IMG/VR virus record: IMGVR_UViG_3300027833_002080
Location: 1,082 to 65,081 of that record
DNA length: 64,000 bases
Source: a virus
Lineage: Duplodnaviria; Caudoviricetes
Reading direction: 5' to 3' (one strand)
The notes below the pieces were generated by a model, which made no database searches, had not been told where the DNA came from, and was given only the letters and a program-made list of their open reading frames with translations. Below are positions 24,038-45,131 of this stretch, in pieces (position 1 is the first letter of the stretch; each line of letters begins with the position of its first letter). The position numbers and the translations under genes are program-made.

Positions 24038-27000
24038 ATGGCTGCAGAACAACAAATTCTACGTAATCAATTTAATTTAAAAAGTAATACAATAGAACTA
24101 CTAAATGGGTCTAAACCATTAGAAGTAGGTAAAGCGTATGCTTTAATTTTACCTTTTAAAACCGATAGCGGAGAGCTTTACAGACAAAAGGATTTTACAA
24201 TTCCTAATACTGAAAAAGAAGATGCGTCTCGAGTTCTTAGATTTGTTGACTTTGTACCTTTTATTAAATATTGTACGTTTGCAGTTCAAGCTATTAGAAA
24301 CGTAAAAGGCACTAATCAATACATTGGAAGCCTTTATTTACGTCAAGCAGATTATGCAACTCAACAAGAAATATCAAGATACACAGAGGCTTTAAAGCAT
24401 TGGACTAGAGGAATAATCGATGTAGTTGACAGAGATGGTAACGACATTGAAACATTACCTATTCTTACAACATTAGCTGAATTAACTAAAATTAAATCTA
24501 TTGGTAAAGATTCTTGTATTAATAGTTTTGATAATGGGTTTACCACTAAAGAAGGATTTACAGGAAGTTGTATTAGTTTTAATGACCCTCTTATAGTAAG
24601 AAAATGTACAGATCCAGCAGCTTTAAATTATAATACTGTAAAACTTATACCAGGTGAAACTGATGATTGCGCGTATGAACCGGGATCTAAAGCTCATGAT
24701 GACGCTACTACTGTCAACATTGCTGGTGGTATATACCATTTGTTGTTAGCTAATACAGGTGTTTATGGGCAATATGAGTTTTGGGTAATCCATGGAAGTA
24801 TGTCAAGTCCTATCACAGATTTATCTTGGGATACAAACTTAAGCGGATCTTTCACTGAAACTCACGCAGGAATAAATGGCCCTACAGTAACGTATGGCCC
24901 TGGAACGCACACTATTTCTGTTATAGTATCCCTAGGTGACAGTCCTTCTGGGTGGGATTTCATTAACAATGAAGTTCAGCTAACTATAGATCTTGTTGTT
25001 GAAGCTAATGTGGCAGGATGTACAGATTTTAATGCATTTAATTATAATCCGAACGCTACTTCTGATGACGGGTCTTGTGAGGCTGTTCTTCGAGGGTGTA
25101 TGGATAATGGATCTTATTCTACTACTACAACGTTAGTAAATAACCAAGGAAATAATAACACTTCTTTTACTATTACTTCTCCTGTTCCAGGAACGGCAGC
25201 AACTAATTACAATTCTAACGTTAATGTTCATGATTGGAGGTCGTGTGAGTATACAGGTTGTACTGACCCTGAAGCAGATAACACTTTAGTAAACAATCCT
25301 TTAATAGTAGCAACAAATGTAACTCCGTGCACAGATAATTGCTGTGAATATACTGAAGATGTAAACGGATGTACTGATCCAGGAACTTTAGCTGCATCTA
25401 CATACAACCCAAGTTCAGTGTATTCAACGTATGTAACTCCCGAAGCAAATATCGCAGATGTAAATCCAGCGTATAGTAATTTTAATTACAACCCTTATGC
25501 TACTGTAGACGATGGTACTTGTTTTGCAAAAAAACCGGGATGCATGGACCCTGAAGCATCAAATTATAGTGTGCCAATTGGTAATCCTCAATTTGATGTA
25601 AATTGGCATTTACAAAGTCTTTGTCAATATGAATATTGTGCTGATGTAAACGCAAATAATGATGTACAAAGTGCAGATCATGATGTTTATACAATGTCGT
25701 GGACTCAAGGTAATTTTTGGGATGAATCTTTAGCTACTGCAAACGGGTTGACAATAACTCCGACACATGATAGTTATTTAGACAACAACTCGTTGTGTAC
25801 TTTTGATGTAGATGTTTTAGATATATGTAATATAAATTCTGAATTTGACGACTACGGTAATAATATTGATGCTGGTGTAATAGGGTATGCTAATACTGCT
25901 ACTGCTGGAGAATTAGCTACAACTACTAGTGGAGATGCATGTTTAGGTCAATTAACTGAAACTGCAAGTACAACTGTTAATGGTTTTACTTACAATACTC
26001 CAACTGCAGAAAAAGTTACTTTACAAGTTATTGATCAAGATAATCCTGTTTTATTTTTAACAGATCCTGAAAAATATGGAACGCTTGTTTACACTTACAC
26101 TGGTAGTACAGGCGGAGGAGCAAATATTACTTTACCTAATATTGACGAGTCATCTGCTACCACGTTAGCTGGGCAATTATCAGCTGCTGGATATAATAGC
26201 GATTTAGATCCTTCAGTGTATTTTTATTTTAGAATTGTAGATACTGTTGAGAATTCTAATACAGGGCTTACATTAAACCCTGCAATTGATGAGCCTGTAA
26301 AGCATCAATTTAATAATGCAGAAATAGTAGAAGTAAGATATTCTGATGGAGCTTATTACTACTTACCTTCAACAGCTCCTGGAACTGTATCAACATTTCA
26401 AGCAGGATCTGCTAACACTACAATACCTACAGGTTACGCTCCTGGAACTATCAATGGTTTAGTTTTAAGTAGTACGGCTACTAATGCAGGTGGAGGAGTA
26501 GATTGTAATCATGCTACAATAGATGAAGGTACTGCTGCAGGTCAGTACATGTATACAGTGTACAGAATTAAAATGACCGCTCCTTGTAGCTTAAATGCTA
26601 TAAACTTTTTAATTGGGTATGACGCTGAAGCAGCATATCCTAATTTAAATATTCTTGCTGACCCAGCATTTAACGGGGAGACGCTTGGTTGTACAGATCC
26701 GATAGCCGATAATTATGATGAAGACGCAACTTATAGTGTTTCAGTCCCAATGAATAATTGGTCTAATTACCTTGCTAATGGAGGATGTTTCATAACAGGA
26801 TGTATCGATGAGTACTACAGCGGTAATTTAGATAATAATATTGTTGTTAGTGCAAATACACTTTCAGGTACTGATATACCAGTGCAAGTTGGACAATATT
26901 TAGAAGAATATGATGGCGTTATTTATAAAATTTATAATAGTCAAGCTTACATATGTCAATTAAATGATTATTTAATTGCTAACAGTGATCCACTATTTGA

Positions 27001-30000
27001 TCTTACTGCTGTATTTGATTTAACTTATTTACCAAACTCTTTTGATGTAATACCTAACGAATGGACAGTACCTTCAGCTGAAGACTTAATATCAATGTCT
27101 ACAAACATTGCTTCAAGTGGATCTGGATTTTTAGGGGAGTTTAATTTTACTTCTGGAGAGTATTGGAGTAGCAGTCTTTCAGTATCAAATCCTAATCAGT
27201 ACGGACAAACTTATAACATAGTAACTAATCCTGCTACTACAGTAGATAGAGCGAATACTCAAAAGTACCGAATTAGATTACATAAAATAATACCATTAGC
27301 TGATATAATAAATGGCGAGGTAGATATTACTGATTGCGGAGAAAATGAAGAAGTTATAGGTTGTACAGACGAGACTGCAACGAATTATAACCCAGAAGCA
27401 ACAACAAACATTAATCCTATTGCAGGAGATACAGATCACGTGTGTCAATATGAATTTACAGTAAGTGATTATGAGGACGAATTATTGCCTATTATTCTTA
27501 ATACTGAGGGCAATACTTTTGAGACATTAGAAGAATATGAAGAAAACGTAGACTCATATTTTAATACTATAGGATTTACTGATGACCTTTTATTGGCTCT
27601 TTATGGAGATCATATAAGTGGGTATACCTCTGCTGACGCAAGTATAGGTGTAACTATCCCTGCTCTTCCTTGTGTTTCAGAAATATATTCTGGGCTTAAA
27701 AATGAAGTATATACTAGCGGTAGTTATGATTTTAATTATACATCGCATGATCCTCGAGGCGCTAGTTCTAAAATTCAAGTAATTGGGCAGCAGCTGCTAG
27801 GCTCTGCAGAAAGAAACTACAAAGTATATTTAAATAATCCAACAAAGGATGGTATTTTAAAGTCTACTATTGATGCGGGAGCTCACTTATCGGCTACGCC
27901 TTCAACATATTTATTAGCAGATGAAAATACTGTTATTTCTAGTATATACCCGCCTTCTCTGGCAGAAGCATTAGCACAAGAATTTAACAATCAAGGGTAC
28001 CAAGGTAACATAAGTTTAAGTAACCTTGTAACTTATAGATTTAGGTTTGATAAAAATATAGTATTAAAAGATGGTGTAACTCATGGCGATATAATAAGTT
28101 ATCTACTTAATGATACTTTTTTAAATACCTCGGAAGCTATAATTAAAGATGTTAAAGGGAATCCTTTATGGCCAGTATTTGACCATAATGATTTACATAA
28201 GGATATGGCAACTTATCCTTCCCTATCCGTCTTAGCTGGAGAAGATAGACGTTTTCATTTTGGGTTTACTCCAAATTCTAAATTTGAAGAGTACGGGCAT
28301 TATGTAACAAATGGAGTAAATTTAATAACATCAAATTCTAATTTTGCTTCTAATTTAAACGATTGGACAGTTATTCCTGGCTCTGCTAATAGTACGTTAG
28401 CTTGGAATGCTTCTTATAGTGGGTCAGCACAGAGAAGCCTTAGTACCGATGCATTAGGAAATAGAACTGGATTAAAGAGAAGTATTGCGGTAGTTAGTGG
28501 GAACAAATATAAAATTACATATACGCGCGCAGTCGTTAATGTAGAAGCTGGTCAAACGCAGGCTACTAAAACTTATGTTGAAGTTCAGACTGCAGGTAAT
28601 AATATTGGAGAGTTTACAGAAATAGCTGTACAGAATGAAACTAGCCCTAATCTTGTAACTACATCTGATACGTTTACTTATACTGGACTTGGCTCTACAG
28701 TAGATTTATATTTTTACTTTGACTCTCAAGTACAAGGATTTTTAAGTTCTTTTGAAGTTGAAAAAGTAATTCCATATCCTAATGGGTATGTTTATTCTGA
28801 AGATCCGTGTGATGACACTAAAGTTCCTTCTGCATTTGTATATGATGTTGTATTAGATATATCTAATGGATTAGGAGAGTTAGACTTTAGTCCGTATGTT
28901 GAATATGTAGATCCAGAAAATACTGGATGTATGGATGCTACGGCATTAAATTATGATGAAGATGCTACATTTACAAATGGTAATTTAGCAGATTGTTTAT
29001 ATTACTTAGATAATTGTGCAGGTACTGGAGTAGATATAGAGGTAGATGTTGAGTCAGCAGATGAAGGATGTGGAAGAGAAATTACAGTTAAAGTTACAGC
29101 TTGTGATAATGTTGTGAGTAATGCTACTATTAGTATTATTGTGCTACAAAAAATAACAGATAATACAGGGGTATCACCGATAACCTCATTTGAACCTATA
29201 TTTACAATTGGGGATATAGAGCCTTGTATTGACGGTGTATCAAACACTGATGGTGTTGCAATATTAGCAGGGTTTACTTATGACCCAACTACTACTCAGC
29301 TTTTTGCTGGAGCAAACGCAGAGAGTAATGTTACTTATATTACTGGGCAAACTGCAGGAGCAATTCCAATAAACACATATCACCCTGAATTTCAAATACA
29401 ATACAGTGAATTTTATTTAGATCCAGAAAGTGGAGAAACTGAAGAATATTTATTTGATTACAATCCTGCTACAGACTTCCAAAGTGTAAACTTTACAATT
29501 GATCCAATTATAAATGGGTGTACAAATGATAGTTCATTTAATTACAATTCTAACGCTACATGCGATGATGGAACTTGTGTGGAGGTAGCAGAAGGTTGTA
29601 CTGATGTAGCAGCATTTAATTATGATCCATTAGCTAATACAGACGAAGGATGTATACCAGTTATTGAGGGATGTACAGATATTGAAGCATACAACACTAA
29701 TTATACTACAGACGAAGTTGCATCTACAAGTCCTGCGGGATCTAATTATCTTTATGGTGACATACAAAATTTACCAGCTCTTCCAGATGTAGGAAATTTA
29801 TCTATAAACACTCCAGGCAACGAAGACCTTTGTTTTTATTGTACTCAATTACAGGTTTCAGATCAAGGTGAGCACATTGCACAAGAGATTACTACTTTAC
29901 CTATTTCTCCAGATTTAGTTACTACAAAGCAGATTACATTTACATGGAATTCTACCATTAATGTAGATAACCAAGATGTTACATTAGCAGATAGCGATGG

Positions 30001-33000
30001 CAACCCTGTTGAAGTGCAAGTTAAGTATACCTATACTAATTATGCTTATACGTTTGTTCCTGATTTTGTGATGTTATATTTACAGAATCCACCGTGTAAA
30101 ACTTCTACTGGCTTTACAATAACGACTGAATCTGTAAGTTACAGTGATTTAAGATTAGGGGTAACAAAAGATTTATATATAATTAATACAGATAATAGTA
30201 CTTACGGGCAATTAACTAAAATTGAATTTGTAGCATATTATAACACTGGAGATAACGGAGTGTCTAGATGTGCGCAAACTATTTCTACAGAAGTAGATTA
30301 TATAGATCCAATTATGGGATGCTTTGACTCTAACGCTTTTAATTATTATTTAAATAATAATTATACAGCTTCTAGTTCTTATAACTTCCCTAGTGAGGTC
30401 TGTGCCGCTGCCTCGGTTCCAATTGCCCAACCTACTTTAACTATACCAGATTTTTGCTACCCTATTATTACAGGTTGTACCAATTCTGAAGCAAGTAATT
30501 ACACGCAGCCTAGTGGCAGTGTTCAATCTAATGTTAATACAGAAAGCGAGTGTGAGTTTGATGGGTGTACACAAGAGTGGGCAGATAACTACAGTTCAAT
30601 AGCCACAGATGACGATGATTCTTGTTACAAAGAAGGATGTACTAGAGCTTGGGCTGATAACTACGATGTCTTAGCAACTATCGATGATGGTTCTTGTTTT
30701 GCAACTGCTTGTACTCAGCCTAACGTATATACATCTCATTTCTGTTTAGATGATACTGACCCTTGTTTTAGTACTGCAGCAAATAATGATAATGGTATTA
30801 GTACAAACTATACTGCTGATACAGCGTTAATTTCTGACGACACTTTATGTTTATATGCAGGGTGTACAGATAACGGGGAGATAAATTCATTTAGCAGTCA
30901 GTCTATAGTTTCTGATCATTATGCAGACTTAACTTGGATTAACAACTTTTTAGTAGCAAATAATCTTACCTCGTACGTAACTACGTTACTTACGGAAATA
31001 CCAGCTTTTGAAACTACCCCTCAAGATCCTGGTCAGCCAGCAGCTAATTATAATTCTTTAGCTACTGTAAGTGCTGATACTTGTAGCTATGAAGGTTGTA
31101 CGGATTCTATTGCATCTAATTATGATGCTGATGCTACAACAGATGATGGGTCATGTACTTACTTTGCATGTATAGAAGAGGGAGCTGCTAATTTTGGAGA
31201 AGGTATTACATCTGGGACAACAGCAGACACTATTGATCTTAGTCTTGCTGCAAATGAATGTGAAGGTCCAAATTTATTATCTACAAACAGATTTAAATTA
31301 AATGAATACTGGGCAGAAGTTAATGCAACTGAGGGAGATTCTGAAGATTACACATTTACTTCCGCTTCTACTTACACGTCAGGGGTATTAACTAAAACTA
31401 TTATTTCGCCTTTTAGTCCAAATGATAATCCGTACAGTATATTAGAACCTGTATTTGATGGAGGATTTACTCCTCAAGCTGCAAATGGGGTAGATATAAA
31501 TACAACTATACAGTACCCTACATATAATCAAGTAGATACAGGAAGTAATGATTACATTTATAGATATATTTTAAGAGTAACAATTTCCCGAACAAATATA
31601 AATGATTCTACTGATCTTAGTGATTACGAAATAAAAATTAAAGAGTACAGTGTATCTAACAGTCTTGATCCAAATAATTTAACTGCAGCACAAGTAACTA
31701 GTCTTGAGACTCAGAATGTTACTTTACTTCAAACTGTTACTCTTGCTTCGGTAGGGGATAATGTGTACGAAACAACTGATGGGTACATTCCTCACCAATT
31801 TGGTCAGGTAACAGTTGTTGAAATAAGTGGGGGTGGAGCTAATTCTGTATCTACAATTACAGACATGACTTTAACAAGAGATCTTTGTATAGATCCATTG
31901 TTAAATTTAGACTCTCCCGAAATGGAAGCGCTTAATAATCAAGAGATATATATTAACAGTGTAAACGTTGATTTCTATTCTGAACTTGGAGAGTCTTTAA
32001 TAACAGATGGTAACTTTGAGGCTATGTTAGGTAATATTGTAGACGGTTACACTGAAGGAACTTTAATACAACAAAACTGGGCGGATTCTGCTGAAGTATT
32101 ACCAGGAATATCTAATTGGTTAACACTGCATGGAAACATGACCGGCTCTGATTGGTTTAACCCTACAAGTATAGAAAGTTGGGATAGAGATTACTATGGA
32201 TTATATCAACAAGCTATATTAAACGTAAATGCTGATCCAAATCATCATGGAGCAATCTTAATGTCTGCGCCAAACGATGCTAATGACACATTTAAACCTA
32301 ACGTCCATATTAGCCAAGCTGTTACATATACAATTGGTAAAATTTATAAACTTACGTTTACAGCCGCATTAGTTAAAAATACAGGTACTACTAATACCAC
32401 TTTAAGTGTACATACAAATGTAACGTACGACTCAACTGCAGGTGTCCAAACAACAGTAACAAATACTTCTTTAGTAGCTACTCAAGAAATTACAGAGGTT
32501 TTAACAGAGCATACTAGATACTTTACTGCAACAGCTGAGATGAATGGACTTTCTTTTTCAATACCTGGAAATAGTACATCTGTAAGAGTGTTATTTATCT
32601 CTGTAGCTGAAGCTACTCCTAATTTATTTAACTCAAACACAGATAGATGTTATTTATTTGGGTGTAATGAACCTTGGGCAACTAACTATAATCCCGACTT
32701 TGGGAATGAAGATTATTTTATAAATGTACCTGCGGGTGAATTAGGACCACAGGGTGAAGCAGGATGCTTCTTAGAAGGGTGTATGAATTCATTAGCTGGT
32801 AATTACGATCCTAATGCAACAATTGATGATGGTTCTTGTATTAAATATGGTTGTACAGATAATGGGTACGCTCCTAACAATACTTTATCTCCTTACCCAC
32901 TAGGGCAAGAGGCAGATAATTATGATCCAACAGCAACTATTAATGAAACAAGTGCTGATGATTTAACATCTCCATGTTTATACACGGGGTGTATGGAATT

Positions 33001-36000
33001 GACAATAAACGGTGTAGTACAACAAAATTATAATGCAGCTTACAATGTTTCTGGTAATTGTTATTCTGAGCAAATAGGGTGTATGGATACTCAGTATTGG
33101 AATTATAATGATACTGATGGAGATGGTACTTATAATAATTTAACAGGAATTGAAGGGCAAGATATAAATGAACAATCTGACCCAAACACTTGCTGTTTAA
33201 ATTTGTATGGATCTCCAAATGAAGCCGGAAATGCTATTGTAGCAACTGTGCCACAACCGCTAACTCCGCCTAAAGACACTTATAATCCTATACAATTTTC
33301 TTTAAATACATATGATTGTGCTGGGAACGACGCTTCAGTCTTTGTAGGTCCTGCGCAGCTTAATGGAGTTTCTTATGGAACATTACCTTCTTTTAGTGAT
33401 AGTACTGTACAAGTAAATAATATAATAGTTCGCGCATATCCAGCTACAGGGACTGCGGGTAGTTATCAACCAGATTTAAGTAGTACTTTATTTACAGAGC
33501 ACACTCCAACTTGGGAACAATTAACTGCTGTAAACGGAAGTGAAATAGGAATTGAAGTACCGATTTACGATGTAGGAACAACGACGTTAGCAACATTTAT
33601 AATCATAACTTTTAATTATACTAATGTTGCTCAATCTACTGAGTCTGAAAATTCAGGTTATAGTTGTACATACTCCTCATCATTAATTTTTGATAACGCT
33701 TGTCTAAGTACACAAGGGTGTTTAGATAATGGATATTTACCTAGTAATGCATCTCAAACTCCAGGGTTCCCTACAGTAGGGTTTAATCCATCATCAAGTA
33801 TTCATGTGGATAGTACAGCTAATTGTAATGTTCCTTATGTATTAGGGTGTATGGATCAGTATTATGCTAAGTCTGCAGGAACAGGACAAAGTTTATTAGG
33901 AACTTCAAGTGCTCCTGCTATTACGGGGACCTTATCTTTTAATTATAATAATAACCCTTCAGGTAATGATATAAGAGGAGTTGCTTATGACGGATGGAGT
34001 ACGGCAGCTACAATTAACATGTTTGATAATACTAATTCTGCTAATATAAACCCAGGTGCATTAATAGCAGAGTTTCATCCTTTATATGATGAAAGTACAG
34101 CAGCGACAGAAAATCAAGATCCTAATGTTGGGACAGGTCCTGCTGAAGAATCTTTTAATGGAGCTTATTATGGATGTTTCCCTGTAGTCACTGGATGCTT
34201 AACAACTGGTAAGTTTAATAAAAATAACTTCTACCATGCTGGTAATATACATCCACAAACAGGAGCCGCTTATAGTGCAACTCCGGGTGACCCTGGTAAT
34301 ATAGCTGGATTAACATTTGGAGCTAACGAGCCTCAAGATCCAACTATAAACCCTTTAACTTTAGTACCTTATACTGCTGAACAAATTAGACAAAATTTTC
34401 CGTATTTCTTTAATGTAAATACTCAATCTACTGATGCAGCAACAAATTGTTATAACAGCATAGCAGGCTGCACGGATCCAACTGCAGCTAATTTTGTTGC
34501 GCTTACAAATAATGTAGACGTAGATGTAAATACAGACAACGGTTCTTGTTGTTATGATGCAGCAGATATAACAGGCTTAACTGCCGCGCTTACTACTAAT
34601 TTCTATAGTACTCTATATCAAGGTGCTGACGTTACTCTTTTAAATGGGCAGTATTATAATGACGAACTTACAGAGTCAACTTTAGACTTTACTCACGCCT
34701 CTTGGAGTAACATTACTTACCCATCAGATGGTAGTACTATGCTTGCAGCAGTAAATGCAACTACATTAACTTCATCTACGTACACAGGAGACGCAATAAT
34801 TTGGAGATTAGATAGTAGTGCAGGTGGAAGTGCGTTAACTACGGCGGACAACAGTATAATAAATCTAACAGATCTTAAACTAGTTTTAACTTCTACGCAA
34901 AAGTTTAACGTAAAGGTAGTCGCACTTAATAAAGATTTTGTTATTAATAGTATTGCATCTAGAGCTGCGTTTGTAGAGTCTCTTGAAAATCCTAATAACA
35001 ATATTTCTAGACTTATATCTAGCCAAAATTACGAGTTAGGCGCTTTGAATCTTAATTTTGACTCTTCTAACGATTTGTCTATAGGAACTTTATATAAAGA
35101 TTTAGTTCTCATTATAACGCATATAAACGAAGACAGTGTAAATTCAAGCACTATTTCTTTTTCAAAGTTTAAGATTAGTAAACGTACTTACGCTGCATTA
35201 ACTATTTCGGCGGGTCTTACTAATCTGATAGATAATCTTAGTAACTTTCCTAGTACATTATCTGGTTATACTGCAACGGTAAAGAATAGTTTAGGAGCTA
35301 CAATATCTACTGTAACAGCAAATACTGCTGTTCAATATTTAGGTGTTATGTTACCTATTTATAAGTATGATTCATCTGCAGCTAATGCAAACGCTTACGG
35401 TGCTTACGCTCCAACATACTCAAACCTTAGCACTCACAGTAATGCAACTAATTTTGTAGACCCTAATTTAGGTACACAGTTACATTTTAGTTTAAGTTAC
35501 CTTGCTGCAGATGGTTCTACAATTTGTACTGCTTCTACAGGAATTGAGTTTACTATTCCGATTGACTTTACAAATACATCAATTAATTATGGATGTTCTA
35601 ATAATACTTATTTACAATATTACCTTAATAATTATTTAGGTAACACATCAGCTATAACTAATTACACTCATAATGCTGGAATTGGAGCAGCTGTAACTAT
35701 ACCAAATGGAGATTGTCAAAATACGGCGTCTACAGGATGTACAGATGATAATTATTTAGGAGCATACCCAGATAAAGAACAGATAGGAACTGTTTCTTTA
35801 GATGCTAATAATGAAATAAGTCAAATTACTACACCATTTATTCCTAATCAATTTGGATACTTAGGTGCTGCTGGATTTAATAGTCCAACTTATACTGGGT
35901 CTTCTTTCCCTAACGTAGCAATAAATATTTCAAATAATTTGCAATGCGGGGACGAGATTATTTTTGGATGTTTAATTGATACTTTTGCTGAGTACTGGGG

Positions 36001-38545
36001 AGCTACTACAATTTCTGGGTCGCACACTCTTTATGGAGTCAACGAAGGCCAAGGTAATTTTACAGGAGAAGCAGGAACTTCTAATCTTTCTTTTGCAAAT
36101 GTTTCTCAAGTTCATAATGTACCTGGATATGCAGACCACGCTTTATTAGAGGGGTGTGGCGATGCAACAGTAGCTGTAATAGGGTGTGCAACAGAAACTC
36201 AATCAGTTACTGCAGTTGTACCAGACAGTGGTACGACAACAGGTGGAAGTGCAGGAACTTCAGTAGTAGGTGTTACTAGTAATGTGATATTCACAAGCAC
36301 TACTACTACTTCAAATGTTTCTTATGGTACTTATGATTCTAACGTTAATGTTATTGGTTTAAGTGCTTGTGGAGGATTTGGTGGGTGTACAGACGATGGT
36401 TATTTAGAATATTACTCGACACCTGCAGCTAATGTTTCAGACAGCGAAGTTGTTATTCCAATTAGTGAATGTGAAACTCTTGTTATTGTAGGGTGTACTG
36501 ACAGTTCTTATACTGGATACAATCCAGAAGCAACAATACATGATGGAGTTTCTTGCGGTACCCCAATTCTTGACGGATGTACCGACCCTTCTTTTTGTGA
36601 ATATTATACAGAAGCACAAACACTTTACAATGTACATACCGGTGAAACAGCTATAGTGTACCCTAACAATGATATAGGTACGTGTAAAAGTGTACAAGGG
36701 TGTATGAATCCTAATTATTTAGAAGCTTACGGGGAAAATTACAATAGTGCATTATTAGCAAGCATTAATGAGTATGAAATAACTGGTCCGCAAGTTTCAG
36801 AATGTAATAGTTTAACTGGTCAGTACTCTTTAGATGAGTATGCTGCAGCAAACCCTGAGTTAGCCCAAACACAAATAAACGATAACTACTATAATGAGGG
36901 GTGTAGTATTCCTATAGTAATTGGTTGTACAGACCCAACTGCTGTAAATTATAACGTATTAGCAAATGTATCGTCTATTAATTCTGAAGGGGTTGTAAAT
37001 GCTTCTTGTATATCTAAAACTGAAGGCTGTACAGATTCAACAGCATTTAATTACGATCCTGAAGCTACTTTTGATGATGGTAGTTGTATAACTCTTGTAG
37101 AAGGGTGTACAAATAATACCGCCTTTAATTTCAATTCAGATGCAAACACTAATGACGGATCTTGTATACCATTTATTTATGGTTGTATTGAAAGCACTTT
37201 TACTTTAAACAATACTACGTATACTACAGCAGCTACATCCTTAGAAGCAGAGTATGATCCAATAACAAATCCGGATATAACTGCTGCAAATACTCATTCA
37301 CCTGCATTGTGTTTCCCAGAAATACTTGGGTGTACAGATGAAACAGCTGTAAACTTTAATAACTACATTTCAGCGACTCCAGATATAGGACAAGCTTTTG
37401 TGACTGATCTTAACGCAGCCTTTACAAATGTAAATACAGATAACGGATCATGCCTTGCTTCTGTAGTAGGTTGTATGGATCCTTGCGCAAATAATTACGA
37501 GGCTAGTGCTACCGTATCTGGTAGTTGTACTTACACTCCAGGATGTACTGATACTAGTGCAATAAACTACAATCCTGAAGCTAATCAGCTTGATACTACG
37601 TGTACGTACTGCGAAGACTGGTCTTTAGTACGTGCCGAGTCTTCTTATGTTACAGTTGTAGATAACACTTATTTTATAAATAATGTAAGTTCTTCTGATG
37701 GGAGCATAACAATAAACCCAGTATCTGCAAATGGAGTTACAAATAATTATGTAATTAAATGGACAGGTATTGCAACTGACGGAAGCATTGTAGATATTGC
37801 TGACAATACTACTACAGTAACAGGGTTAGCTCCAGGAGAGTATACGTTTACTATATATACTGATAATCCTGCTTGTGCTCCTAGCCCAACAGATCCTGTA
37901 TCTAATGTAGTTACCACTTACATACATCAAACAGATTTATCGTGTACGTATGATACAGGAGACACTGAGTCTTACTCAACTTTACCGCTAGCTATTAGCA
38001 GCACAGTAACAGTAGGTACGGATAATTATGGGTGTACAGATAATGAAGGATATGATCCAGGATTTTACAATCCGGTAGGAGAGTTAACTATACACCCTTT
38101 GGGAGGTCTTAATAATACGTATACATCAAGCACAGATGAGATTCAGTTGCCAACAAATACTGCTATCAACTATGATGGTGCAGCAGGTATAGATGATGGC
38201 TCATGTAATTATGCAGGATGTACTGACCCAGACGCTTTAAATTATGATAGTTTAGCTACTGTTAATGACAATTCTTGTCAGTACATTGTAGGATGTACTA
38301 TAGTATCTGCGTGTAATTATCATCCAGCAGCTGTTCTTTCAGGACCTTGTGAATATGCAGCTGTATTTAGAAACTGCTTAGGAGAATGTGTACATCCAGA
38401 TACTGGAGCTACTTTAGCTACAGCCGATAATCCATTAGGAGAATCTCTAGAGAATCCAGGTTTATGTCCAAACCAAGTGCTAGGTATATGTTTAGATCCA
38501 ACAGCAATTAACTTTACACCTATCGGTGATAACATAATAATATAA
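24038..38545 (+). CDS. Giant (4835 aa) Cys-repeat fibre/adhesin-like protein
   Basis: About 50 degenerate GCTDxxAxNYxxxAxxDDGSC units (hand count), with DUF1566-like, CBM-like and SprB-like segments; no signal peptide. Confidence 0.85.
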   Translation: MAAEQQILRNQFNLKSNTIELLNGSKPLEVGKAYALILPFKTDSGELYRQKDFTIPNTEKEDASRVLRFVDFVPFIKYCTFAVQAIRNVKGTNQYIGSLYLRQADYATQQEISRYTEALKHWTRGIIDVVDRDGNDIETLPILTTLAELTKIKSIGKDSCINSFDNGFTTKEGFTGSCISFNDPLIVRKCTDPAALNYNTVKLIPGETDDCAYEPGSKAHDDATTVNIAGGIYHLLLANTGVYGQYEFWVIHGSMSSPITDLSWDTNLSGSFTETHAGINGPTVTYGPGTHTISVIVSLGDSPSGWDFINNEVQLTIDLVVEANVAGCTDFNAFNYNPNATSDDGSCEAVLRGCMDNGSYSTTTTLVNNQGNNNTSFTITSPVPGTAATNYNSNVNVHDWRSCEYTGCTDPEADNTLVNNPLIVATNVTPCTDNCCEYTEDVNGCTDPGTLAASTYNPSSVYSTYVTPEANIADVNPAYSNFNYNPYATVDDGTCFAKKPGCMDPEASNYSVPIGNPQFDVNWHLQSLCQYEYCADVNANNDVQSADHDVYTMSWTQGNFWDESLATANGLTITPTHDSYLDNNSLCTFDVDVLDICNINSEFDDYGNNIDAGVIGYANTATAGELATTTSGDACLGQLTETASTTVNGFTYNTPTAEKVTLQVIDQDNPVLFLTDPEKYGTLVYTYTGSTGGGANITLPNIDESSATTLAGQLSAAGYNSDLDPSVYFYFRIVDTVENSNTGLTLNPAIDEPVKHQFNNAEIVEVRYSDGAYYYLPSTAPGTVSTFQAGSANTTIPTGYAPGTINGLVLSSTATNAGGGVDCNHATIDEGTAAGQYMYTVYRIKMTAPCSLNAINFLIGYDAEAAYPNLNILADPAFNGETLGCTDPIADNYDEDATYSVSVPMNNWSNYLANGGCFITGCIDEYYSGNLDNNIVVSANTLSGTDIPVQVGQYLEEYDGVIYKIYNSQAYICQLNDYLIANSDPLFDLTAVFDLTYLPNSFDVIPNEWTVPSAEDLISMSTNIASSGSGFLGEFNFTSGEYWSSSLSVSNPNQYGQTYNIVTNPATTVDRANTQKYRIRLHKIIPLADIINGEVDITDCGENEEVIGCTDETATNYNPEATTNINPIAGDTDHVCQYEFTVSDYEDELLPIILNTEGNTFETLEEYEENVDSYFNTIGFTDDLLLALYGDHISGYTSADASIGVTIPALPCVSEIYSGLKNEVYTSGSYDFNYTSHDPRGASSKIQVIGQQLLGSAERNYKVYLNNPTKDGILKSTIDAGAHLSATPSTYLLADENTVISSIYPPSLAEALAQEFNNQGYQGNISLSNLVTYRFRFDKNIVLKDGVTHGDIISYLLNDTFLNTSEAIIKDVKGNPLWPVFDHNDLHKDMATYPSLSVLAGEDRRFHFGFTPNSKFEEYGHYVTNGVNLITSNSNFASNLNDWTVIPGSANSTLAWNASYSGSAQRSLSTDALGNRTGLKRSIAVVSGNKYKITYTRAVVNVEAGQTQATKTYVEVQTAGNNIGEFTEIAVQNETSPNLVTTSDTFTYTGLGSTVDLYFYFDSQVQGFLSSFEVEKVIPYPNGYVYSEDPCDDTKVPSAFVYDVVLDISNGLGELDFSPYVEYVDPENTGCMDATALNYDEDATFTNGNLADCLYYLDNCAGTGVDIEVDVESADEGCGREITVKVTACDNVVSNATISIIVLQKITDNTGVSPITSFEPIFTIGDIEPCIDGVSNTDGVAILAGFTYDPTTTQLFAGANAESNVTYITGQTAGAIPINTYHPEFQIQYSEFYLDPESGETEEYLFDYNPATDFQSVNFTIDPIINGCTNDSSFNYNSNATCDDGTCVEVAEGCTDVAAFNYDPLANTDEGCIPVIEGCTDIEAYNTNYTTDEVASTSPAGSNYLYGDIQNLPALPDVGNLSINTPGNEDLCFYCTQLQVSDQGEHIAQEITTLPISPDLVTTKQITFTWNSTINVDNQDVTLADSDGNPVEVQVKYTYTNYAYTFVPDFVMLYLQNPPCKTSTGFTITTESVSYSDLRLGVTKDLYIINTDNSTYGQLTKIEFVAYYNTGDNGVSRCAQTISTEVDYIDPIMGCFDSNAFNYYLNNNYTASSSYNFPSEVCAAASVPIAQPTLTIPDFCYPIITGCTNSEASNYTQPSGSVQSNVNTESECEFDGCTQEWADNYSSIATDDDDSCYKEGCTRAWADNYDVLATIDDGSCFATACTQPNVYTSHFCLDDTDPCFSTAANNDNGISTNYTADTALISDDTLCLYAGCTDNGEINSFSSQSIVSDHYADLTWINNFLVANNLTSYVTTLLTEIPAFETTPQDPGQPAANYNSLATVSADTCSYEGCTDSIASNYDADATTDDGSCTYFACIEEGAANFGEGITSGTTADTIDLSLAANECEGPNLLSTNRFKLNEYWAEVNATEGDSEDYTFTSASTYTSGVLTKTIISPFSPNDNPYSILEPVFDGGFTPQAANGVDINTTIQYPTYNQVDTGSNDYIYRYILRVTISRTNINDSTDLSDYEIKIKEYSVSNSLDPNNLTAAQVTSLETQNVTLLQTVTLASVGDNVYETTDGYIPHQFGQVTVVEISGGGANSVSTITDMTLTRDLCIDPLLNLDSPEMEALNNQEIYINSVNVDFYSELGESLITDGNFEAMLGNIVDGYTEGTLIQQNWADSAEVLPGISNWLTLHGNMTGSDWFNPTSIESWDRDYYGLYQQAILNVNADPNHHGAILMSAPNDANDTFKPNVHISQAVTYTIGKIYKLTFTAALVKNTGTTNTTLSVHTNVTYDSTAGVQTTVTNTSLVATQEITEVLTEHTRYFTATAEMNGLSFSIPGNSTSVRVLFISVAEATPNLFNSNTDRCYLFGCNEPWATNYNPDFGNEDYFINVPAGELGPQGEAGCFLEGCMNSLAGNYDPNATIDDGSCIKYGCTDNGYAPNNTLSPYPLGQEADNYDPTATINETSADDLTSPCLYTGCMELTINGVVQQNYNAAYNVSGNCYSEQIGCMDTQYWNYNDTDGDGTYNNLTGIEGQDINEQSDPNTCCLNLYGSPNEAGNAIVATVPQPLTPPKDTYNPIQFSLNTYDCAGNDASVFVGPAQLNGVSYGTLPSFSDSTVQVNNIIVRAYPATGTAGSYQPDLSSTLFTEHTPTWEQLTAVNGSEIGIEVPIYDVGTTTLATFIIITFNYTNVAQSTESENSGYSCTYSSSLIFDNACLSTQGCLDNGYLPSNASQTPGFPTVGFNPSSSIHVDSTANCNVPYVLGCMDQYYAKSAGTGQSLLGTSSAPAITGTLSFNYNNNPSGNDIRGVAYDGWSTAATINMFDNTNSANINPGALIAEFHPLYDESTAATENQDPNVGTGPAEESFNGAYYGCFPVVTGCLTTGKFNKNNFYHAGNIHPQTGAAYSATPGDPGNIAGLTFGANEPQDPTINPLTLVPYTAEQIRQNFPYFFNVNTQSTDAATNCYNSIAGCTDPTAANFVALTNNVDVDVNTDNGSCCYDAADITGLTAALTTNFYSTLYQGADVTLLNGQYYNDELTESTLDFTHASWSNITYPSDGSTMLAAVNATTLTSSTYTGDAIIWRLDSSAGGSALTTADNSIINLTDLKLVLTSTQKFNVKVVALNKDFVINSIASRAAFVESLENPNNNISRLISSQNYELGALNLNFDSSNDLSIGTLYKDLVLIITHINEDSVNSSTISFSKFKISKRTYAALTISAGLTNLIDNLSNFPSTLSGYTATVKNSLGATISTVTANTAVQYLGVMLPIYKYDSSAANANAYGAYAPTYSNLSTHSNATNFVDPNLGTQLHFSLSYLAADGSTICTASTGIEFTIPIDFTNTSINYGCSNNTYLQYYLNNYLGNTSAITNYTHNAGIGAAVTIPNGDCQNTASTGCTDDNYLGAYPDKEQIGTVSLDANNEISQITTPFIPNQFGYLGAAGFNSPTYTGSSFPNVAINISNNLQCGDEIIFGCLIDTFAEYWGATTISGSHTLYGVNEGQGNFTGEAGTSNLSFANVSQVHNVPGYADHALLEGCGDATVAVIGCATETQSVTAVVPDSGTTTGGSAGTSVVGVTSNVIFTSTTTTSNVSYGTYDSNVNVIGLSACGGFGGCTDDGYLEYYSTPAANVSDSEVVIPISECETLVIVGCTDSSYTGYNPEATIHDGVSCGTPILDGCTDPSFCEYYTEAQTLYNVHTGETAIVYPNNDIGTCKSVQGCMNPNYLEAYGENYNSALLASINEYEITGPQVSECNSLTGQYSLDEYAAANPELAQTQINDNYYNEGCSIPIVIGCTDPTAVNYNVLANVSSINSEGVVNASCISKTEGCTDSTAFNYDPEATFDDGSCITLVEGCTNNTAFNFNSDANTNDGSCIPFIYGCIESTFTLNNTTYTTAATSLEAEYDPITNPDITAANTHSPALCFPEILGCTDETAVNFNNYISATPDIGQAFVTDLNAAFTNVNTDNGSCLASVVGCMDPCANNYEASATVSGSCTYTPGCTDTSAINYNPEANQLDTTCTYCEDWSLVRAESSYVTVVDNTYFINNVSSSDGSITINPVSANGVTNNYVIKWTGIATDGSIVDIADNTTTVTGLAPGEYTFTIYTDNPACAPSPTDPVSNVVTTYIHQTDLSCTYDTGDTESYSTLPLAISSTVTVGTDNYGCTDNEGYDPGFYNPVGELTIHPLGGLNNTYTSSTDEIQLPTNTAINYDGAAGIDDGSCNYAGCTDPDALNYDSLATVNDNSCQYIVGCTIVSACNYHPAAVLSGPCEYAAVFRNCLGECVHPDTGATLATADNPLGESLENPGLCPNQVLGICLDPTAINFTPIGDNIII

Positions 38546-42070: not shown

Positions 42071-43123
42071 ATGAAAAAATTAATATTTATTTTATTATTA
42101 ATCCCACTAGCTAGTAAAGCTCAACTAAACTTGTTTAGGTTTGCTACGTTTTACGCTAGCTATTCAACAAGTACTCCTCAATTAAATCCCCCTAGTTTTA
42201 GAGTAGAGGGGGTGGCTCCTGACAATGTGTGGGAGCACGTAAGCAATTTTGTAGATGGTAGGCTTGTTGAAACTACACAGGTTAATGACCCAAATTTAAT
42301 TATAACATTTGGACTTCGCAAGATAGCAAGATTCGACTATCAGATTAAACAAAACAATTTTTATACAGGTAATGAGCATGAAGCTAGTGACTACGCTACA
42401 ATTTCTAATGCTCCCGGACTTGAATACCTATTTCAATATTCGTTTGTTAGAAACAACGGATTAGAAGTAGCCCAACAAGAATATAATGTACGATACATAT
42501 CTAACATGTTTACAGTTAAAGCTAACTATGTTAATAATGGATTAATAGATTTAAAGTATTCTTTGGGCGAGGTTAGGTTACGCAAAAGTTTTGGTGGATT
42601 AGACTTTACTTTTGGCGTAGCCCATCGTTCTCATCCTGTATATGGTTGTAATCCCATGGATGATTACGAAGGTACTTGGGAAGAATTTGCTATTAGTGAA
42701 ATGTATTTACCTACAGCAAATGGTATATGGATGCAAATAACTGATGACGGTCCTGAGTGGATAGCAGGTAGTGATAACGAGTTTTACAAGTATCATTTTG
42801 GTCGAGCAGTTAATAACTATAACAAGAGAATACTTGACGGTTTAGGTCTTCAGCAAGAAGTATCTGCAGTACTAGGACTAGATTATTATTTATATAAAGA
42901 AAACTATTGGTTGCACGCTTGGGGTTCTGTGTATCCTATACATAAAAGCTTAACAGATTTTGCATATCAAAGAGATGCAGAACAAGAAGAATGGGATACT
43001 GGTTTAATTTTTGGGGTTAACTTAAATAGACATCTTAGTTTGTTTGTTGAAGGTAAACACTTAAAGTTTTGGGGTATGCCATCTTACGAATTAAAAACAG
43101 GGTTAAATTATTTAATATTCTAA
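42071..43123 (+). CDS. Secreted outer-membrane beta-barrel-like protein
   Basis: Signal peptide MKKLIFILLLIPLASKA/Q; alternating aromatic-rich strands; C-terminal YELKTGLNYLIF with terminal Phe. Confidence 0.75.
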   Translation: MKKLIFILLLIPLASKAQLNLFRFATFYASYSTSTPQLNPPSFRVEGVAPDNVWEHVSNFVDGRLVETTQVNDPNLIITFGLRKIARFDYQIKQNNFYTGNEHEASDYATISNAPGLEYLFQYSFVRNNGLEVAQQEYNVRYISNMFTVKANYVNNGLIDLKYSLGEVRLRKSFGGLDFTFGVAHRSHPVYGCNPMDDYEGTWEEFAISEMYLPTANGIWMQITDDGPEWIAGSDNEFYKYHFGRAVNNYNKRILDGLGLQQEVSAVLGLDYYLYKENYWLHAWGSVYPIHKSLTDFAYQRDAEQEEWDTGLIFGVNLNRHLSLFVEGKHLKFWGMPSYELKTGLNYLIF

Positions 43124-43127
43124 CAGC

Positions 43128-43406
43128 ATGGCGCAAGAATTAAATGAAAATACAGCAGTACAAATAAGTGTAAAAACTTTGGCAGGAATAGCAGTTGGTT
43201 TAGGTACAATAATAAGTATGTGGTTTGTACTACAAGCTGACATAGCTGAAGCTAAATTACTTCCTGCTGCTCCAGACCCTGTAATAACAAGGATGGAATT
43301 TGATATGAAAGATAAGCTTATACGTCAAACGATTATGTCTACACAGGAAGATGTTACGGAAATTAAAGATGACTTAAAAGCAATTAAACAAAAATTGTAT
43401 GAATAA
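43128..43406 (+). CDS. Single-pass membrane protein with C-terminal coiled coil
   Basis: Hydrophobic LAGIAVGLGTIISMWFVL, Pro-rich linker, heptads VTEIKDDLKAIKQKL. Confidence 0.75.
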   Translation: MAQELNENTAVQISVKTLAGIAVGLGTIISMWFVLQADIAEAKLLPAAPDPVITRMEFDMKDKLIRQTIMSTQEDVTEIKDDLKAIKQKLYE

Positions 43407-43764
43407 GTTATTAATATTTTTACTACCTTTAACAGTTACAGCTCAAGAGTTTGTTAGTTCTAGCTCATTTAATTCTAAGATAGCTAAAGGAACAGTGGTA
43501 ATTGAGTTCTGGGCTGAGTGGAACGCAGGTAATCAAGTTGATTTTTTACCTTCGTTAAAAGATTGCGAGTCATACAGGCTGTGTATTGTAAAAGGAGCTA
43601 AGGTTCAAAAAGAATACAAAGTAACGGCTATACCTACAGTTATTATATTTGATAACGGGGTAGAGCAAAATAGGTTTAATCCTAATATAATGATGCAGTT
43701 AGCTGCAACTAAAAAGAAAGTACAAAAATCAATTGATAACATAACACTAAGTAAATTTCAGTAA
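43399..43764 (+). CDS. Secreted thioredoxin-fold protein lacking CxxC
   Basis: Signal peptide MNKLLIFLLPLTVTA/Q; VVIEFWAEW-NAGN in place of W-CGPC; YKVTAIPTVIIFDNG cis-Pro loop retained. Confidence 0.85.
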   Translation: MNKLLIFLLPLTVTAQEFVSSSSFNSKIAKGTVVIEFWAEWNAGNQVDFLPSLKDCESYRLCIVKGAKVQKEYKVTAIPTVIIFDNGVEQNRFNPNIMMQLAATKKKVQKSIDNITLSKFQ

Positions 43765-43883
43765 TGAAAAAATTAAAAGCCACTTTAAGCAAAGTACACA
43801 CATCAACTATAGCCATTTCTTTTTTTTGGACTGCTATGGTGATATGCTACATAATAGGTTTTATAATATTAACACATTCTTAA
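43764..43883 (+). CDS. Small single-TM peptide (39 aa)
   Basis: MKKLKATLSKVHTSTIAISFFWTAMVICYIIGFIILTHS; TAATG stop/start overlap. Confidence 0.6.
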   Translation: MKKLKATLSKVHTSTIAISFFWTAMVICYIIGFIILTHS

Positions 43884-43893
43884 ATAAATAACA

Positions 43894-44292
43894 ATGGCAA
43901 CTGTAACAACAAAATTAACAATTACTTCGCAAGATTTAGTTTCAAATGCTTTAAGTATAGCTTTAACTACTAAAGCTACTGTAGCACACACTACCGGGTT
44001 AGCGCGAGCTCCTATTACATCTACTTTAAAAACTACTGCTGCGGGGCAAGTAACTCTATATACAGCTAATGATTTTTCGTCTGGAGCTTACATGTTTATT
44101 AAAAACACAGACGTTACTGCTTTAGACTATATTTATATTTACGCAGATACTGCTGCTGATGATCCTGTACTGTTAAAGTTAGCAGGAGGTGAATTTGCAT
44201 TTTTGCCTATGAGTTCAGACACTACGTTAAAAGCGTACACAGCAACTAGTGGTACAATTGTAGAATGGATGGTTTTTGGAACAGACGCATAA
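43894..44292 (+). CDS. Hypothetical beta-rich (possibly virion) protein
   Basis: 132 aa, T/A-rich, YMFIKNT...LAGGEFAFLP. Confidence 0.65.
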   Translation: MATVTTKLTITSQDLVSNALSIALTTKATVAHTTGLARAPITSTLKTTAAGQVTLYTANDFSSGAYMFIKNTDVTALDYIYIYADTAADDPVLLKLAGGEFAFLPMSSDTTLKAYTATSGTIVEWMVFGTDA

Positions 44293-44293
44293 T

Positions 44294-44749
44294 ATGAAAC
44301 TAAGTAAAAACTTTGCGTTGTCTGAGATAATTCACAGCAACACAGCTAAAAGATTAGGGATAGAAAATGAGCCGACTAAAGCGCACTTGCAGAATATGCA
44401 GCATCTTATTGATGATCTTATACAGCCTCTTCGTAGCAGTATTGGTCCTATCAGGATCAGTAGTGGTTATCGCAACCCGGCGCTCAATCGTGCTATTGGT
44501 GGCAGTCGTTCTTCGCAGCACTGCAAAGGTGAGGCATTGGACATCCAGTTTTGGCAGATGGGGAAGATGATGAACGAACTTATCTATGAGTGGATTTTAG
44601 ATTCAGGTTTAGAGTTTGACCAGATGATTAATGAGTTTGACTTTGCTTGGATACATATATCTTTAAAAGCTAAAGATAATAGAAAACAAGTACTCGAAGC
44701 CTACAAAGATGAGGATGGAGATACTAAATACAAATACGCAGATGTTTAA
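44294..44749 (+). CDS. Endolysin, peptidase M15A family
   Basis: MKLSKNFALSE, ISSGYR, SQHCKGEALDI, WIHIS (Zn ligands H, D, H). ATG at 44294. Confidence 0.92.
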   Translation: MKLSKNFALSEIIHSNTAKRLGIENEPTKAHLQNMQHLIDDLIQPLRSSIGPIRISSGYRNPALNRAIGGSRSSQHCKGEALDIQFWQMGKMMNELIYEWILDSGLEFDQMINEFDFAWIHISLKAKDNRKQVLEAYKDEDGDTKYKYADV

Positions 44750-45131
44750 AAATATACTTAAAAGTTTAGTAGGGCAAGCCTCTAGTATAATAGATGAAGT
44801 TGTTACTACAGATGAAGAACGATTAGTTCTTAAAAACAAATTAGAACAGTTAGGGAAGGAGCATGAACAGGAAGTGTTCAAACTAGAAGTAGAGGATAGA
44901 AAAAGTGCCAGAACAATGTTCACTGATGATAGTGTCATACAAAAGGTACTAGCTATTATCTTTACTTGCGCTTATTTCTTTATATCTTATTTTATGTTTA
45001 AATATTTTATAACTAATACACTAGATCTTTCTGACTACGAGATAGGATTTATCTCAACAGTCTTTGGGGCAATGTCAAGTAAAGTGAACACAATAATTGA
45101 CTTTTTCTTTGGAGGATCTTCTAAAAAATAA
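44742..45131 (+). CDS. Putative holin (3TM / GTA-holin-like)
   Basis: IIDEVVTTDEE, EVEDRKSAR, two TM helices, DFFFGGS; adjacent to the endolysin. Confidence 0.75.
   Translation: MFKNILKSLVGQASSIIDEVVTTDEERLVLKNKLEQLGKEHEQEVFKLEVEDRKSARTMFTDDSVIQKVLAIIFTCAYFFISYFMFKYFITNTLDLSDYEIGFISTVFGAMSSKVNTIIDFFFGGSSKK

Follow-up and report, generated by a model that had tools for sequence, protein, structure and literature searches.

A conserved barrel, coiled-coil and thioredoxin-like trio of marine crAss-like phages and its possible part in outer-membrane lysis

Introduction

The two-component spanins of phages, represented by Rz/Rz1 of lambda, are among the closest described counterparts of the locus reported here. 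About 15% of phages are reported to carry no spanin gene, and gp28 of phiKT has been described as a cationic antimicrobial-like peptide that disrupts the outer membrane without a spanin (10.1101/515445). A survey of spanins lists 91 of 677 phages without one, including the Bacteroides phage B124-14 and Croceibacter phages, and its authors remark that 'an OMP could act as an o-spanin' (OMP, outer-membrane protein; PMC6139136). The idea of an OMP-type o-spanin has thus been raised in print, and no example of it was found in the literature searched. OMPs are encoded by phages, 1,603 of them being reported from 1,303 huge phage genomes (10.64898/2026.10.24.761521). In this study, we analysed a DNA stretch of 64,000 nucleotides (positions 1,082 to 65,081 of IMG/VR record IMGVR_UViG_3300027833_002080; hereafter the window), in which a gene for a predicted 14-stranded OMP (the barrel) is followed by genes for a 92-residue membrane protein (TM92) and an exported thioredoxin-like (Trx-like) protein. 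This trio is real, conserved and phage-specific; its folds are known, whereas its combination and context are undescribed, and no description of it was found in the open-access literature searched.

The trio resembles a two-component spanin in several respects. TM92, like an i-spanin, is a predicted inner-membrane protein with an N-terminal transmembrane (TM) helix and a charged coiled-coil part, its gene overlaps by 8 nt the next gene, which encodes an exported partner, near the endolysin and holin genes, and the partner has a conserved, presumably periplasmic, cysteine. It differs in that the partner is a folded thioredoxin domain of 105 residues with a signal-peptidase-I signal rather than a short proline-rich lipoprotein, TM92 is much shorter than typical i-spanins, an outer-membrane barrel is added as a third component and none of the proteins has a sequence relation to any spanin family. 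The 'disruptin' gp28 of phiKT is likewise a solution for phages without spanin genes, but it is a cationic peptide as described above, whereas the trio comprises three structured exported proteins and no cationic peptide. With Lom of lambda and the OMPs of huge phages, the barrel has in common that it is a phage-encoded, signal-peptide-bearing beta-barrel with a C-terminal aromatic residue; it belongs to another family, with 12–14 strands instead of eight, and is found in a 65-kb crAss-like phage, linked to two exported proteins and lysis genes. The Trx-like protein shares the fold, the FWAEW lead-in and the cis-Pro loop of thioredoxin (PF00085), from which it differs in having Asn in place of both catalytic cysteines, in being exported and in carrying another invariant cysteine (Cys56) and an invariant C-terminal Lys-Phe.

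We propose tentatively, recognizing that the odds are somewhat against it, that the trio constitutes an envelope module, specific to phages, within the lysis cassette of a clade of marine crAss-like Bacteroidota phages, which would perform, or be required for, the outer-membrane lysis step in place of an Rz/Rz1 spanin.

Results

Gene layout of the trio

The genes and the elements within them that are central to this report are as follows.

42071–43123, + strand: barrel, 350 residues; signal peptide at residues 1–17 with Q18 at +1, 14 modelled strands, C-terminus ...NYLIF
42323–42415, + strand: barrel turn, residues 85–115; majority fraction 0.79, no gaps, predicted local distance difference test (pLDDT) 29
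42638–42847, + strand: barrel insert, residues 190–259; 70 residues with short helices between strands 9 and 10
43128–43406, + strand: TM92, 92 residues; bitopic, with a short N-terminus, TM helix, Pro-rich linker and charged heptad helix
43399–43764, + strand: Trx-like protein, 121 residues; signal peptide at residues 1–15 with Q16 at +1, WNAGN where WCGPC is expected
43522–43533, + strand: codons of Trx-like N42-A43-G44-N45, the former CxxC position by alignment to solved thioredoxins
43564–43566, + strand: codon of Trx-like Cys56, the invariant single cysteine (178 of 178 sequences)

The stop codon (TAA) of the preceding fibre gene directly abuts the ATG of the barrel gene, the barrel and TM92 genes are 4 nt apart, the TM92 and Trx-like frames overlap by 8 nt, and the Trx-like frame shares 1 nt (TAATG) with that of a 39-residue peptide, TM39. 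A 628-residue fibre protein and a 231-residue collagen-repeat fibre protein are encoded upstream, and an M15 peptidase endolysin and a holin candidate downstream on the same strand. A preliminary description of this DNA, made from the sequence alone, had noted four tightly coupled genes between the tail-fibre and lysis genes, and the open reading frames (ORFs) are arranged in this way. Promoter-like and terminator-like sites across the cassette showed no excess over shuffled sequences.

The barrel protein

The N-terminus of the barrel protein contains a hydrophobic segment (residues 4–22) and the cleavage motif SKA followed by Q18. Q18 is kept in at least 90% of the alignment rows, and 184 of 186 unique relatives end in Phe, in keeping with the Sec signal, the Gln at +1 and the C-terminal Phe noted earlier. 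The AlphaFold2 (AF2) model, built from a 37-row alignment, has 14 strands (pLDDT 74; predicted template-modelling score 0.61), and its best solved matches in VIA-align are 12-stranded outer-membrane barrels (Z 12.4–13.3, root-mean-square deviation (r.m.s.d.) 3.8–4.7, 163–191 residues aligned). These are EstA (Z 13.3, r.m.s.d. 4.4, 191 aligned), Tsx (Z 13.2, r.m.s.d. 3.8, 187 aligned), KdgM (Z 13.1), NanC (Z 12.7; also matched by Foldseek at E 9e-6) and NalP (Z 12.4). The barrel fold put forward in the preliminary description is thus what the model and its top matches give, and the signal peptide, the even strand count, the C-terminal aromatic residue and the predicted structure together identify the 350-residue protein as a predicted outer-membrane beta-barrel.

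The likeness to barrels of the Tsx, KdgM, NanC and PF03797 types is one of fold alone, with 6–14% identity and no sequence-family match. The 12-stranded barrels named above lack the 70-residue insert and the 31-residue conserved turn of the phage protein, which has 14 modelled strands instead; with these 14 strands and no Pfam family at the cut-off, the protein is not of the eight-stranded Ail/Lom type either. A PorV/PorP-like protein of the type IX secretion system was considered and dropped, since 6h3i_F scored just Z 7.6. No Pfam, PHROG or NCBIfam family matched the barrel at threshold, and no Pfam family matched ten distant full-length relatives. A word-indexed search returned 273 relatives, none carrying a functional name, and a profile search of 1.84 billion representatives gave 339 clusters. 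In the ESM Atlas, the barrel and TM92 fell in viral unnamed clusters only, and their named neighbours (autotransporter 0.93, DUF2730 0.83) can serve as no more than leads. The barrel constitutes a new phage-only OMP family.

The C-terminus was taken to lie on the periplasmic side, as in other outer-membrane barrels, and the strands were counted back from there. With this strand parity, most surface loops of the AF2 model are 2–13 residues long; the exception is the 70-residue insert at residues 190–259, which is predicted to lie on the cell-surface side or to plug the lumen. The 31-residue turn at residues 85–115, which is conserved like the best strands, free of gaps and the sole part of the model with pLDDT below 50, would by the same parity face the periplasm and may serve as a partner-binding or lumen-filling element.

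The thioredoxin-like protein

The Trx-like protein is recognized by PF00085 (28.8 bits against a cut-off of 23.5), its AF2 model (pLDDT 88.6) shows the classic strand/helix order and its VIA list is filled by thioredoxins, including 7d6l (Z 15.5, r.m.s.d. 3.2, 106 residues) and 2e0q (Z 15.2, r.m.s.d. 1.7, 97 residues). The signal peptide ends at VTA followed by Gln, a site of the signal-peptidase-I type. In the phmmer alignment, FWAEWNAGN coincides with the FWA.WCG.. stretch of solved thioredoxins. CxxC occurs in none of 178 sequences, all of which have Asn at both catalytic Cys positions; N42, N45, C56, P79, T80, K119 and F120 are each found in 178 of 178 unique family members, P79-T80 representing the cis-Pro position by sequence. 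The secreted thioredoxin fold in which WCGPC has become WNAGN and the cis-Pro loop is kept, read previously from this one protein, is thus borne out, and the loss of both catalytic cysteines with the cis-Pro residues kept extends to the family.

Because the NxxN site, Cys56 and the cis-Pro residues are invariant, the pattern of residues indicates a site that has been converted and is held under selection rather than one that has decayed. Redox-dead thioredoxin domains such as the b domains of PDI act as binding modules. The single invariant Cys56 in an exported protein would also invite an intermolecular disulfide, a type of link that is stressed as a feature of spanins in the spanin survey (PMC6139136). 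No fused forms of 213–2000 residues were found, which is weak evidence. A lipoprotein nature was considered for distant relatives, some of whose signal peptides hold a cysteine, and was rejected, as none fits a lipobox by eye.

The TM92 protein

TM92 has one hydrophobic segment (residues 11–39, with the TM helix at about residues 19–38), followed by the linker LPAAPDP and a C-terminal helix of 41 residues, 41% of which are charged and for which one heptad register places hydrophobic residues at eight of 11 a/d positions. The TM helix and proline linker ascribed to this protein beforehand are accordingly recovered, as is a heptad pattern where the coiled coil was placed. The motif TRMEFDMKDxLIRQTIM is conserved, with E57, K61, D62, R66 and I69 invariant in 23 diverse sequences. 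TM92 matched no family in Pfam, PHROG or NCBIfam, and no spanin family. An N-in/C-out orientation is assumed from the exported neighbours and a conserved Lys just before the helix. The barrel model, the export signals and the TM segment agree with the locations predicted in the preliminary description, at the outer membrane, in the periplasm and at the inner membrane.

Conservation of the trio

A barrel-seeded search of IMG/VR yielded 574 confirmed stretches, the best 80 serving for the locus counts, and a Trx-seeded search added 73 new viral loci. The barrel, TM92 and Trx-like genes are found in the same order in 73 of the 80 barrel-seeded loci. The fetched DNA of six of the seven misses ends within about 1 kb of the barrel gene or inside that of TM92; the seventh (L063) has 4.4 kb of downstream DNA without TM92 and Trx-like genes. 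All three genes, with the barrel upstream, are present in 67 of the 73 Trx-seeded loci, and the six misses all have less than 2.7 kb of upstream DNA. For these three genes, the neighbourhood is thus conserved, as the grouping proposed earlier would have it. TM92 and Trx-like genes are separated by at most 100 bp in 67 of 73 loci, while the gap between barrel and TM92 genes in 73 loci is at most 20 bp in 53, 21–700 bp in five and 0.7–2.5 kb in 15.

Among 185,579 species genomes, the barrel was found at two loci (L081 and L082), both in one metagenome-assembled genome (MAG) labelled Candidatus Woesearchaeota. L081 holds a barrel of 29% identity, directly followed by TM92 (54% identity) and then by the beginning of a gene of the Trx-like type; L082 holds the barrel. 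These are most likely phage contigs misbinned into the archaeal MAG and not archaeal genes. Since the barrel is virtually absent from cellular genomes, the cassette is not a host operon, and no characterized host operon matching it was met in these genomes.

The similarity to the window is mosaic. In relatives of the L002 type, the barrel matches at 87% and the Trx-like protein at 63%, whereas in those of the L011 type the barrel matches at 72% and the Trx-like protein, M15 endolysin and holin all match at 90%. This contrast implies that the barrel may travel with the fibre module, and the pattern across L001–L015 suggests a recombination break between the barrel and Trx-like genes.

The genes inserted between barrel and TM92 at wide-gap loci include those for a secreted Cys-rich protein and small basic proteins. 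The former is encoded in distant relatives at L058:7627–8334 and L080:7013–7513; its signal peptide follows the Q-rule and its DCxDGSDE motif recalls LDL-receptor class A (Pfam E just 0.07), so that the module may have a fourth exported member. At L058:7048–9162 are four short and highly basic ORFs of 81, 102, 181 and 84 residues, all starting MAFK.(K/N)G, which look like a paralogous family. The genes between barrel and TM92 and after the Trx-like gene in L058 and L048 had no PHROGs or Pfam match, and the one match from the scan of these two loci was upstream of the barrel, to a tail-fibre-like PHROG without an assigned function.

Lysis genes and the spanin question

The neighbouring genes on the lysis side are the following.

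43764–43883, + strand: TM39, 39 residues; single-helix membrane peptide
43894–44292, + strand: ORF of 132 residues without a family
44276–44749, + strand: M15 peptidase endolysin; PF08291 E 4e-16, phrog_894 E 7e-37
44709–45131, + strand: holin candidate; phrog_3427 E 1.5e-6, its gene beginning within the last part of that for the endolysin

A search for lipobox ORFs in the 64-kb window of the 65-kb genome gave no strict candidate and three implausible relaxed ones among 1333 ORF starts of at least 25 residues, in agreement with the earlier remark that the window holds no lipobox-type o-spanin. The barrel and Trx-like proteins are the only two credible ORFs in the window with a signal-peptidase-I signal and Gln; the only other match to this pattern is a 29-residue ORF on the minus strand. 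Such a Gln after the signal-peptidase-I site (the Q-rule) is typical of Bacteroidota (PMC10367356).

An M15 endolysin homologue is encoded downstream on the same strand in 42 of the 80 loci; of the 66 loci that extend far enough, 38 have it within 2 kb after the Trx-like gene. In L068, L073 and L080, which carry the most divergent versions of TM92 and the Trx-like protein, the Trx-like stop overlaps the endolysin start. The endolysin of L080 is followed by a holin, a homologue of the holin candidate of the window, which matches PF11351 (GTA_holin_3TM) at E 7e-5, just below the cut-off. In its listed form, the endolysin ORF of the window begins with TTG 44276, inside the 132-residue ORF; relatives align to the endolysin just from residue 7, and ATG 44294 is hence the likelier start. 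In the gut crAss-like phage cr4_1 (L156, NC_055893.1), translation with table 11 gives the annotated genes around the M15 endolysin, gp12 and gp13, only in shortened or displaced form.

TM39 is hydrophobic (KD19 of 2.39) and is found by tblastn in 14 of the 80 related loci, all close relatives, although a query this short limits the sensitivity. Its restriction to close relatives marks it as an accessory rather than a member of a conserved cassette, and its composition makes it a plausible membrane peptide limited to one clade. The preliminary description had counted it as the fourth gene of the cassette: the ORF and its hydrophobic helix are present, but conserved membership is not seen. For the 132-residue ORF, neither Pfam, PHROGs and NCBIfam nor PADLOC gave a family, and a tblastn search found no counterpart at the corresponding place in the 80 related loci, so it is probably outside the module. 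No PADLOC family was matched by any of the five proteins examined.

The phage and its habitat

The window makes up nearly all of a single contig of 65,081 bp. It encodes a capsid protein of the crAss type (PF23898, E 5e-76 in the Pfam scan), ring protein 1 (PF24228, E 3e-52), ring protein 2 (PF25702, E 2e-39), whose gene follows the holin candidate, ring protein 3/4 (PF25710, E 3e-9) and a muzzle protein (PF25731, E 7e-50). The crAss-type capsid, ring and muzzle genes all lie in one long + strand block. The capsid protein matches 131 GenBank phage records, comprising gut crAss-like phages and Flavobacterium phages, with at most about 33% identity to any isolate, and DNA nearly identical to the window is present in marine and seawater metagenome runs. 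Taken together, these protein families, the low identity to isolates and the marine DNA matches identify the source as an uncultured marine crAss-like phage. The GenBank phage records, which may lack entries close to this genome, gave no match to a 3.9-kb stretch of the DNA, the barrel, the Trx-like protein or TM92. Metatranscriptome contigs from three runs of two studies show 85–100% likeness over parts of the barrel, TM92, Trx-like and M15/holin region; one RNA-library contig of 768 nt spans the 3' end of the barrel gene into that of TM92, the presence of a contig in such a library not being proof of transcription and gaps in the coverage carrying no information.

Two further proteins of the window may be mentioned. 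The translation of a single ORF of 4835 residues (24038–38545, + strand), located between the ring protein 3/4 region and the fibre genes, shows on inspection by eye numerous copies of a Cys-containing module, GCTD..A.NY(N/D); its product is presumably a giant fibre or adhesin. A 680-residue protein encoded after the portal gene (16074–18116, + strand) has a peptidoglycan-binding domain (PF01471, E 4e-7) and may be a virion-borne wall-binding or wall-degrading protein.

Discussion

Proposed mechanism

The mechanism considered here builds on the folds, export signals, conservation, gene coupling and lack of a lipoprotein spanin candidate found above; the orientations, every contact between the trio proteins and the effect on the outer membrane are what we infer. 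TM92 would be anchored in the inner membrane in the manner of an i-spanin and extend its coiled-coil helix into the periplasm, and the redox-dead thioredoxin fold would be a periplasmic connector, whose old active-site groove (the NxxN site and the cis-Pro loop) would bind a partner peptide and whose Cys56 may form a covalent dimer. The barrel would be the outer-membrane anchor, replacing the lipid anchor of the o-spanin, and its long invariant periplasmic loop would be the docking site. After removal of the wall by the M15 endolysin, the tether would destabilize or fuse the membranes. Stated at its boldest, the trio would constitute a third class of spanin, a three-part OMP-anchored envelope bridge in which an i-spanin-like protein and a redox-dead thioredoxin connector are joined to a phage-made barrel, a claim that we regard as rather doubtful. 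A complex prediction for the barrel (residues 18–350), TM92 (36–92) and the Trx-like protein (16–121) as partner scored 0.07 against a mark of 0.32, a result that speaks neither for nor against binding.

Several observations weigh against an outer-membrane lysis module. The main physical objection is one of reach: the extramembrane part of TM92 comprises only about 55 residues, far below the span that a spanin must bridge, and even with the 105-residue thioredoxin domain and the barrel loop added the reach is, by our estimate, at best borderline. The window TM92 has balanced flanking charges, and its orientation is assumed. The Trx-like protein is no lipoprotein and bears no resemblance to any o-spanin, and no precedent was found for an OMP-anchored tether as a membrane disruptor. 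At the level of the genes, more than 700 bp of unrelated genes part the barrel from the TM92–Trx pair in 15 of 73 loci; the similarity of the barrel tracks the fibre side and that of the Trx-like protein the endolysin side, a pattern by which the barrel may be a separate unit; and an M15 homologue is lacking from the 2 kb that follow the Trx-like gene in 28 of the 66 loci with sufficient DNA, the genes after the Trx-like gene in two of these 28 matching no family. Finally, the phages behind these loci are all related and keep the order of their late genes, so that synteny alone may account for the co-occurrence, and the late structural and lysis genes of Crassvirales are described as one transcription unit (PMC10136315), which makes adjacency to lysis genes weaker evidence than it would be for a free-standing cassette.

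Alternative explanations

The mosaic similarity and the wide gaps to the barrel speak for an alternative that we consider unlikely, namely that TM92 and the Trx-like protein have an accessory part in the regulation of lysis at the inner membrane or in the periplasm, for instance as an antiholin-like or endolysin-controlling pair, with the barrel as an unrelated OMP upstream. TM92 and the Trx-like protein do behave as a tightly coupled unit, rarely more than 100 bp apart; in L068, L073 and L080 this unit is also coupled in translation to the endolysin gene, and small membrane proteins without a family can be essential lysis factors, Lcc6 of LambdaSo serving as the precedent (10.1101/2024.01.23.576932). 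However, the trio is kept together down to 29% barrel identity, the best conserved non-strand element of the barrel is predicted to face the periplasm and the outer-membrane step of lysis would be left unexplained, because the window holds no spanin candidate. The shared gene order might instead be all there is, the three being independent exported proteins that are adjacent without forming a system. This would suit the origin of all loci in one broad phage lineage and the ability of genes to insert between barrel and TM92, but overlapping or abutting reading frames are retained across deep divergence, and the trio is kept while the 132-residue ORF, TM39, the inserts and the endolysin type come and go; we judge such mere neighbourhood to be quite unlikely.

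Two further explanations start from the barrel. In superinfection exclusion or progeny protection, the barrel and its periplasmic helpers would mask or alter a receptor or block DNA entry by related phages. The barrel gene directly follows the tail-fibre genes and its similarity follows the fibre side, phage OMPs are common, Lom of lambda being reported to bind LamB and block superinfection (10.64898/2026.10.24.761521), and many phage barrels are present in BFVD. Such a role is nevertheless improbable: the modelled surface loops are very short save one conserved insert, the surface regions show no hypervariability, the presumed periplasmic side being the more strongly conserved, the genes lie within the late structural/lysis block, no PADLOC family was matched and the coupling of TM92 and the Trx-like protein to the endolysin would have no explanation. 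The top structural matches of the barrel (Tsx, KdgM and NanC; Z 12.7–13.2, Foldseek NanC E 9e-6) would also suit a solute channel, for instance for nucleosides or oligosaccharides, which together with a periplasmic binding partner would raise nutrient uptake in infection. Autotransporter barrels score equally, however, so that just strand number and fold are shared with channels, no channel family is matched by sequence and a late-operon place beside lysis genes fits uptake poorly. The thioredoxin fold is also not a known type of solute-binding protein, and we regard this explanation as very improbable.

The preliminary description had offered an undescribed trans-envelope system with outer-membrane disruption, superinfection exclusion or a nutrient channel as its possible functions. 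The conserved barrel, TM92 and Trx-like trio stands, and the gene context weakly favours the lysis-linked option; membership of TM39 does not stand, and the separation of the barrel by 0.7–2.5 kb in 15 of 73 loci counts against a single unit.

Biological significance

About one in seven phages of Gram-negative hosts, Bacteroidota phages included, has no recognizable spanin. The trio is a concrete candidate for the means by which such phages open the outer membrane; it is conserved and abundant, occurring in hundreds of marine viral contigs, and can be cloned easily. In the invariant NxxN site of the Trx-like protein, nature would have given a redox site a second use, probably in binding, and the Q-rule signal peptides point to Bacteroidota as the host phylum of this uncultured phage group. 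If the proposed outer-membrane role is true, many marine phages of Bacteroidota that count as 'spanin-less', a large group, would get through the outer membrane by means of an OMP-anchored bridge.

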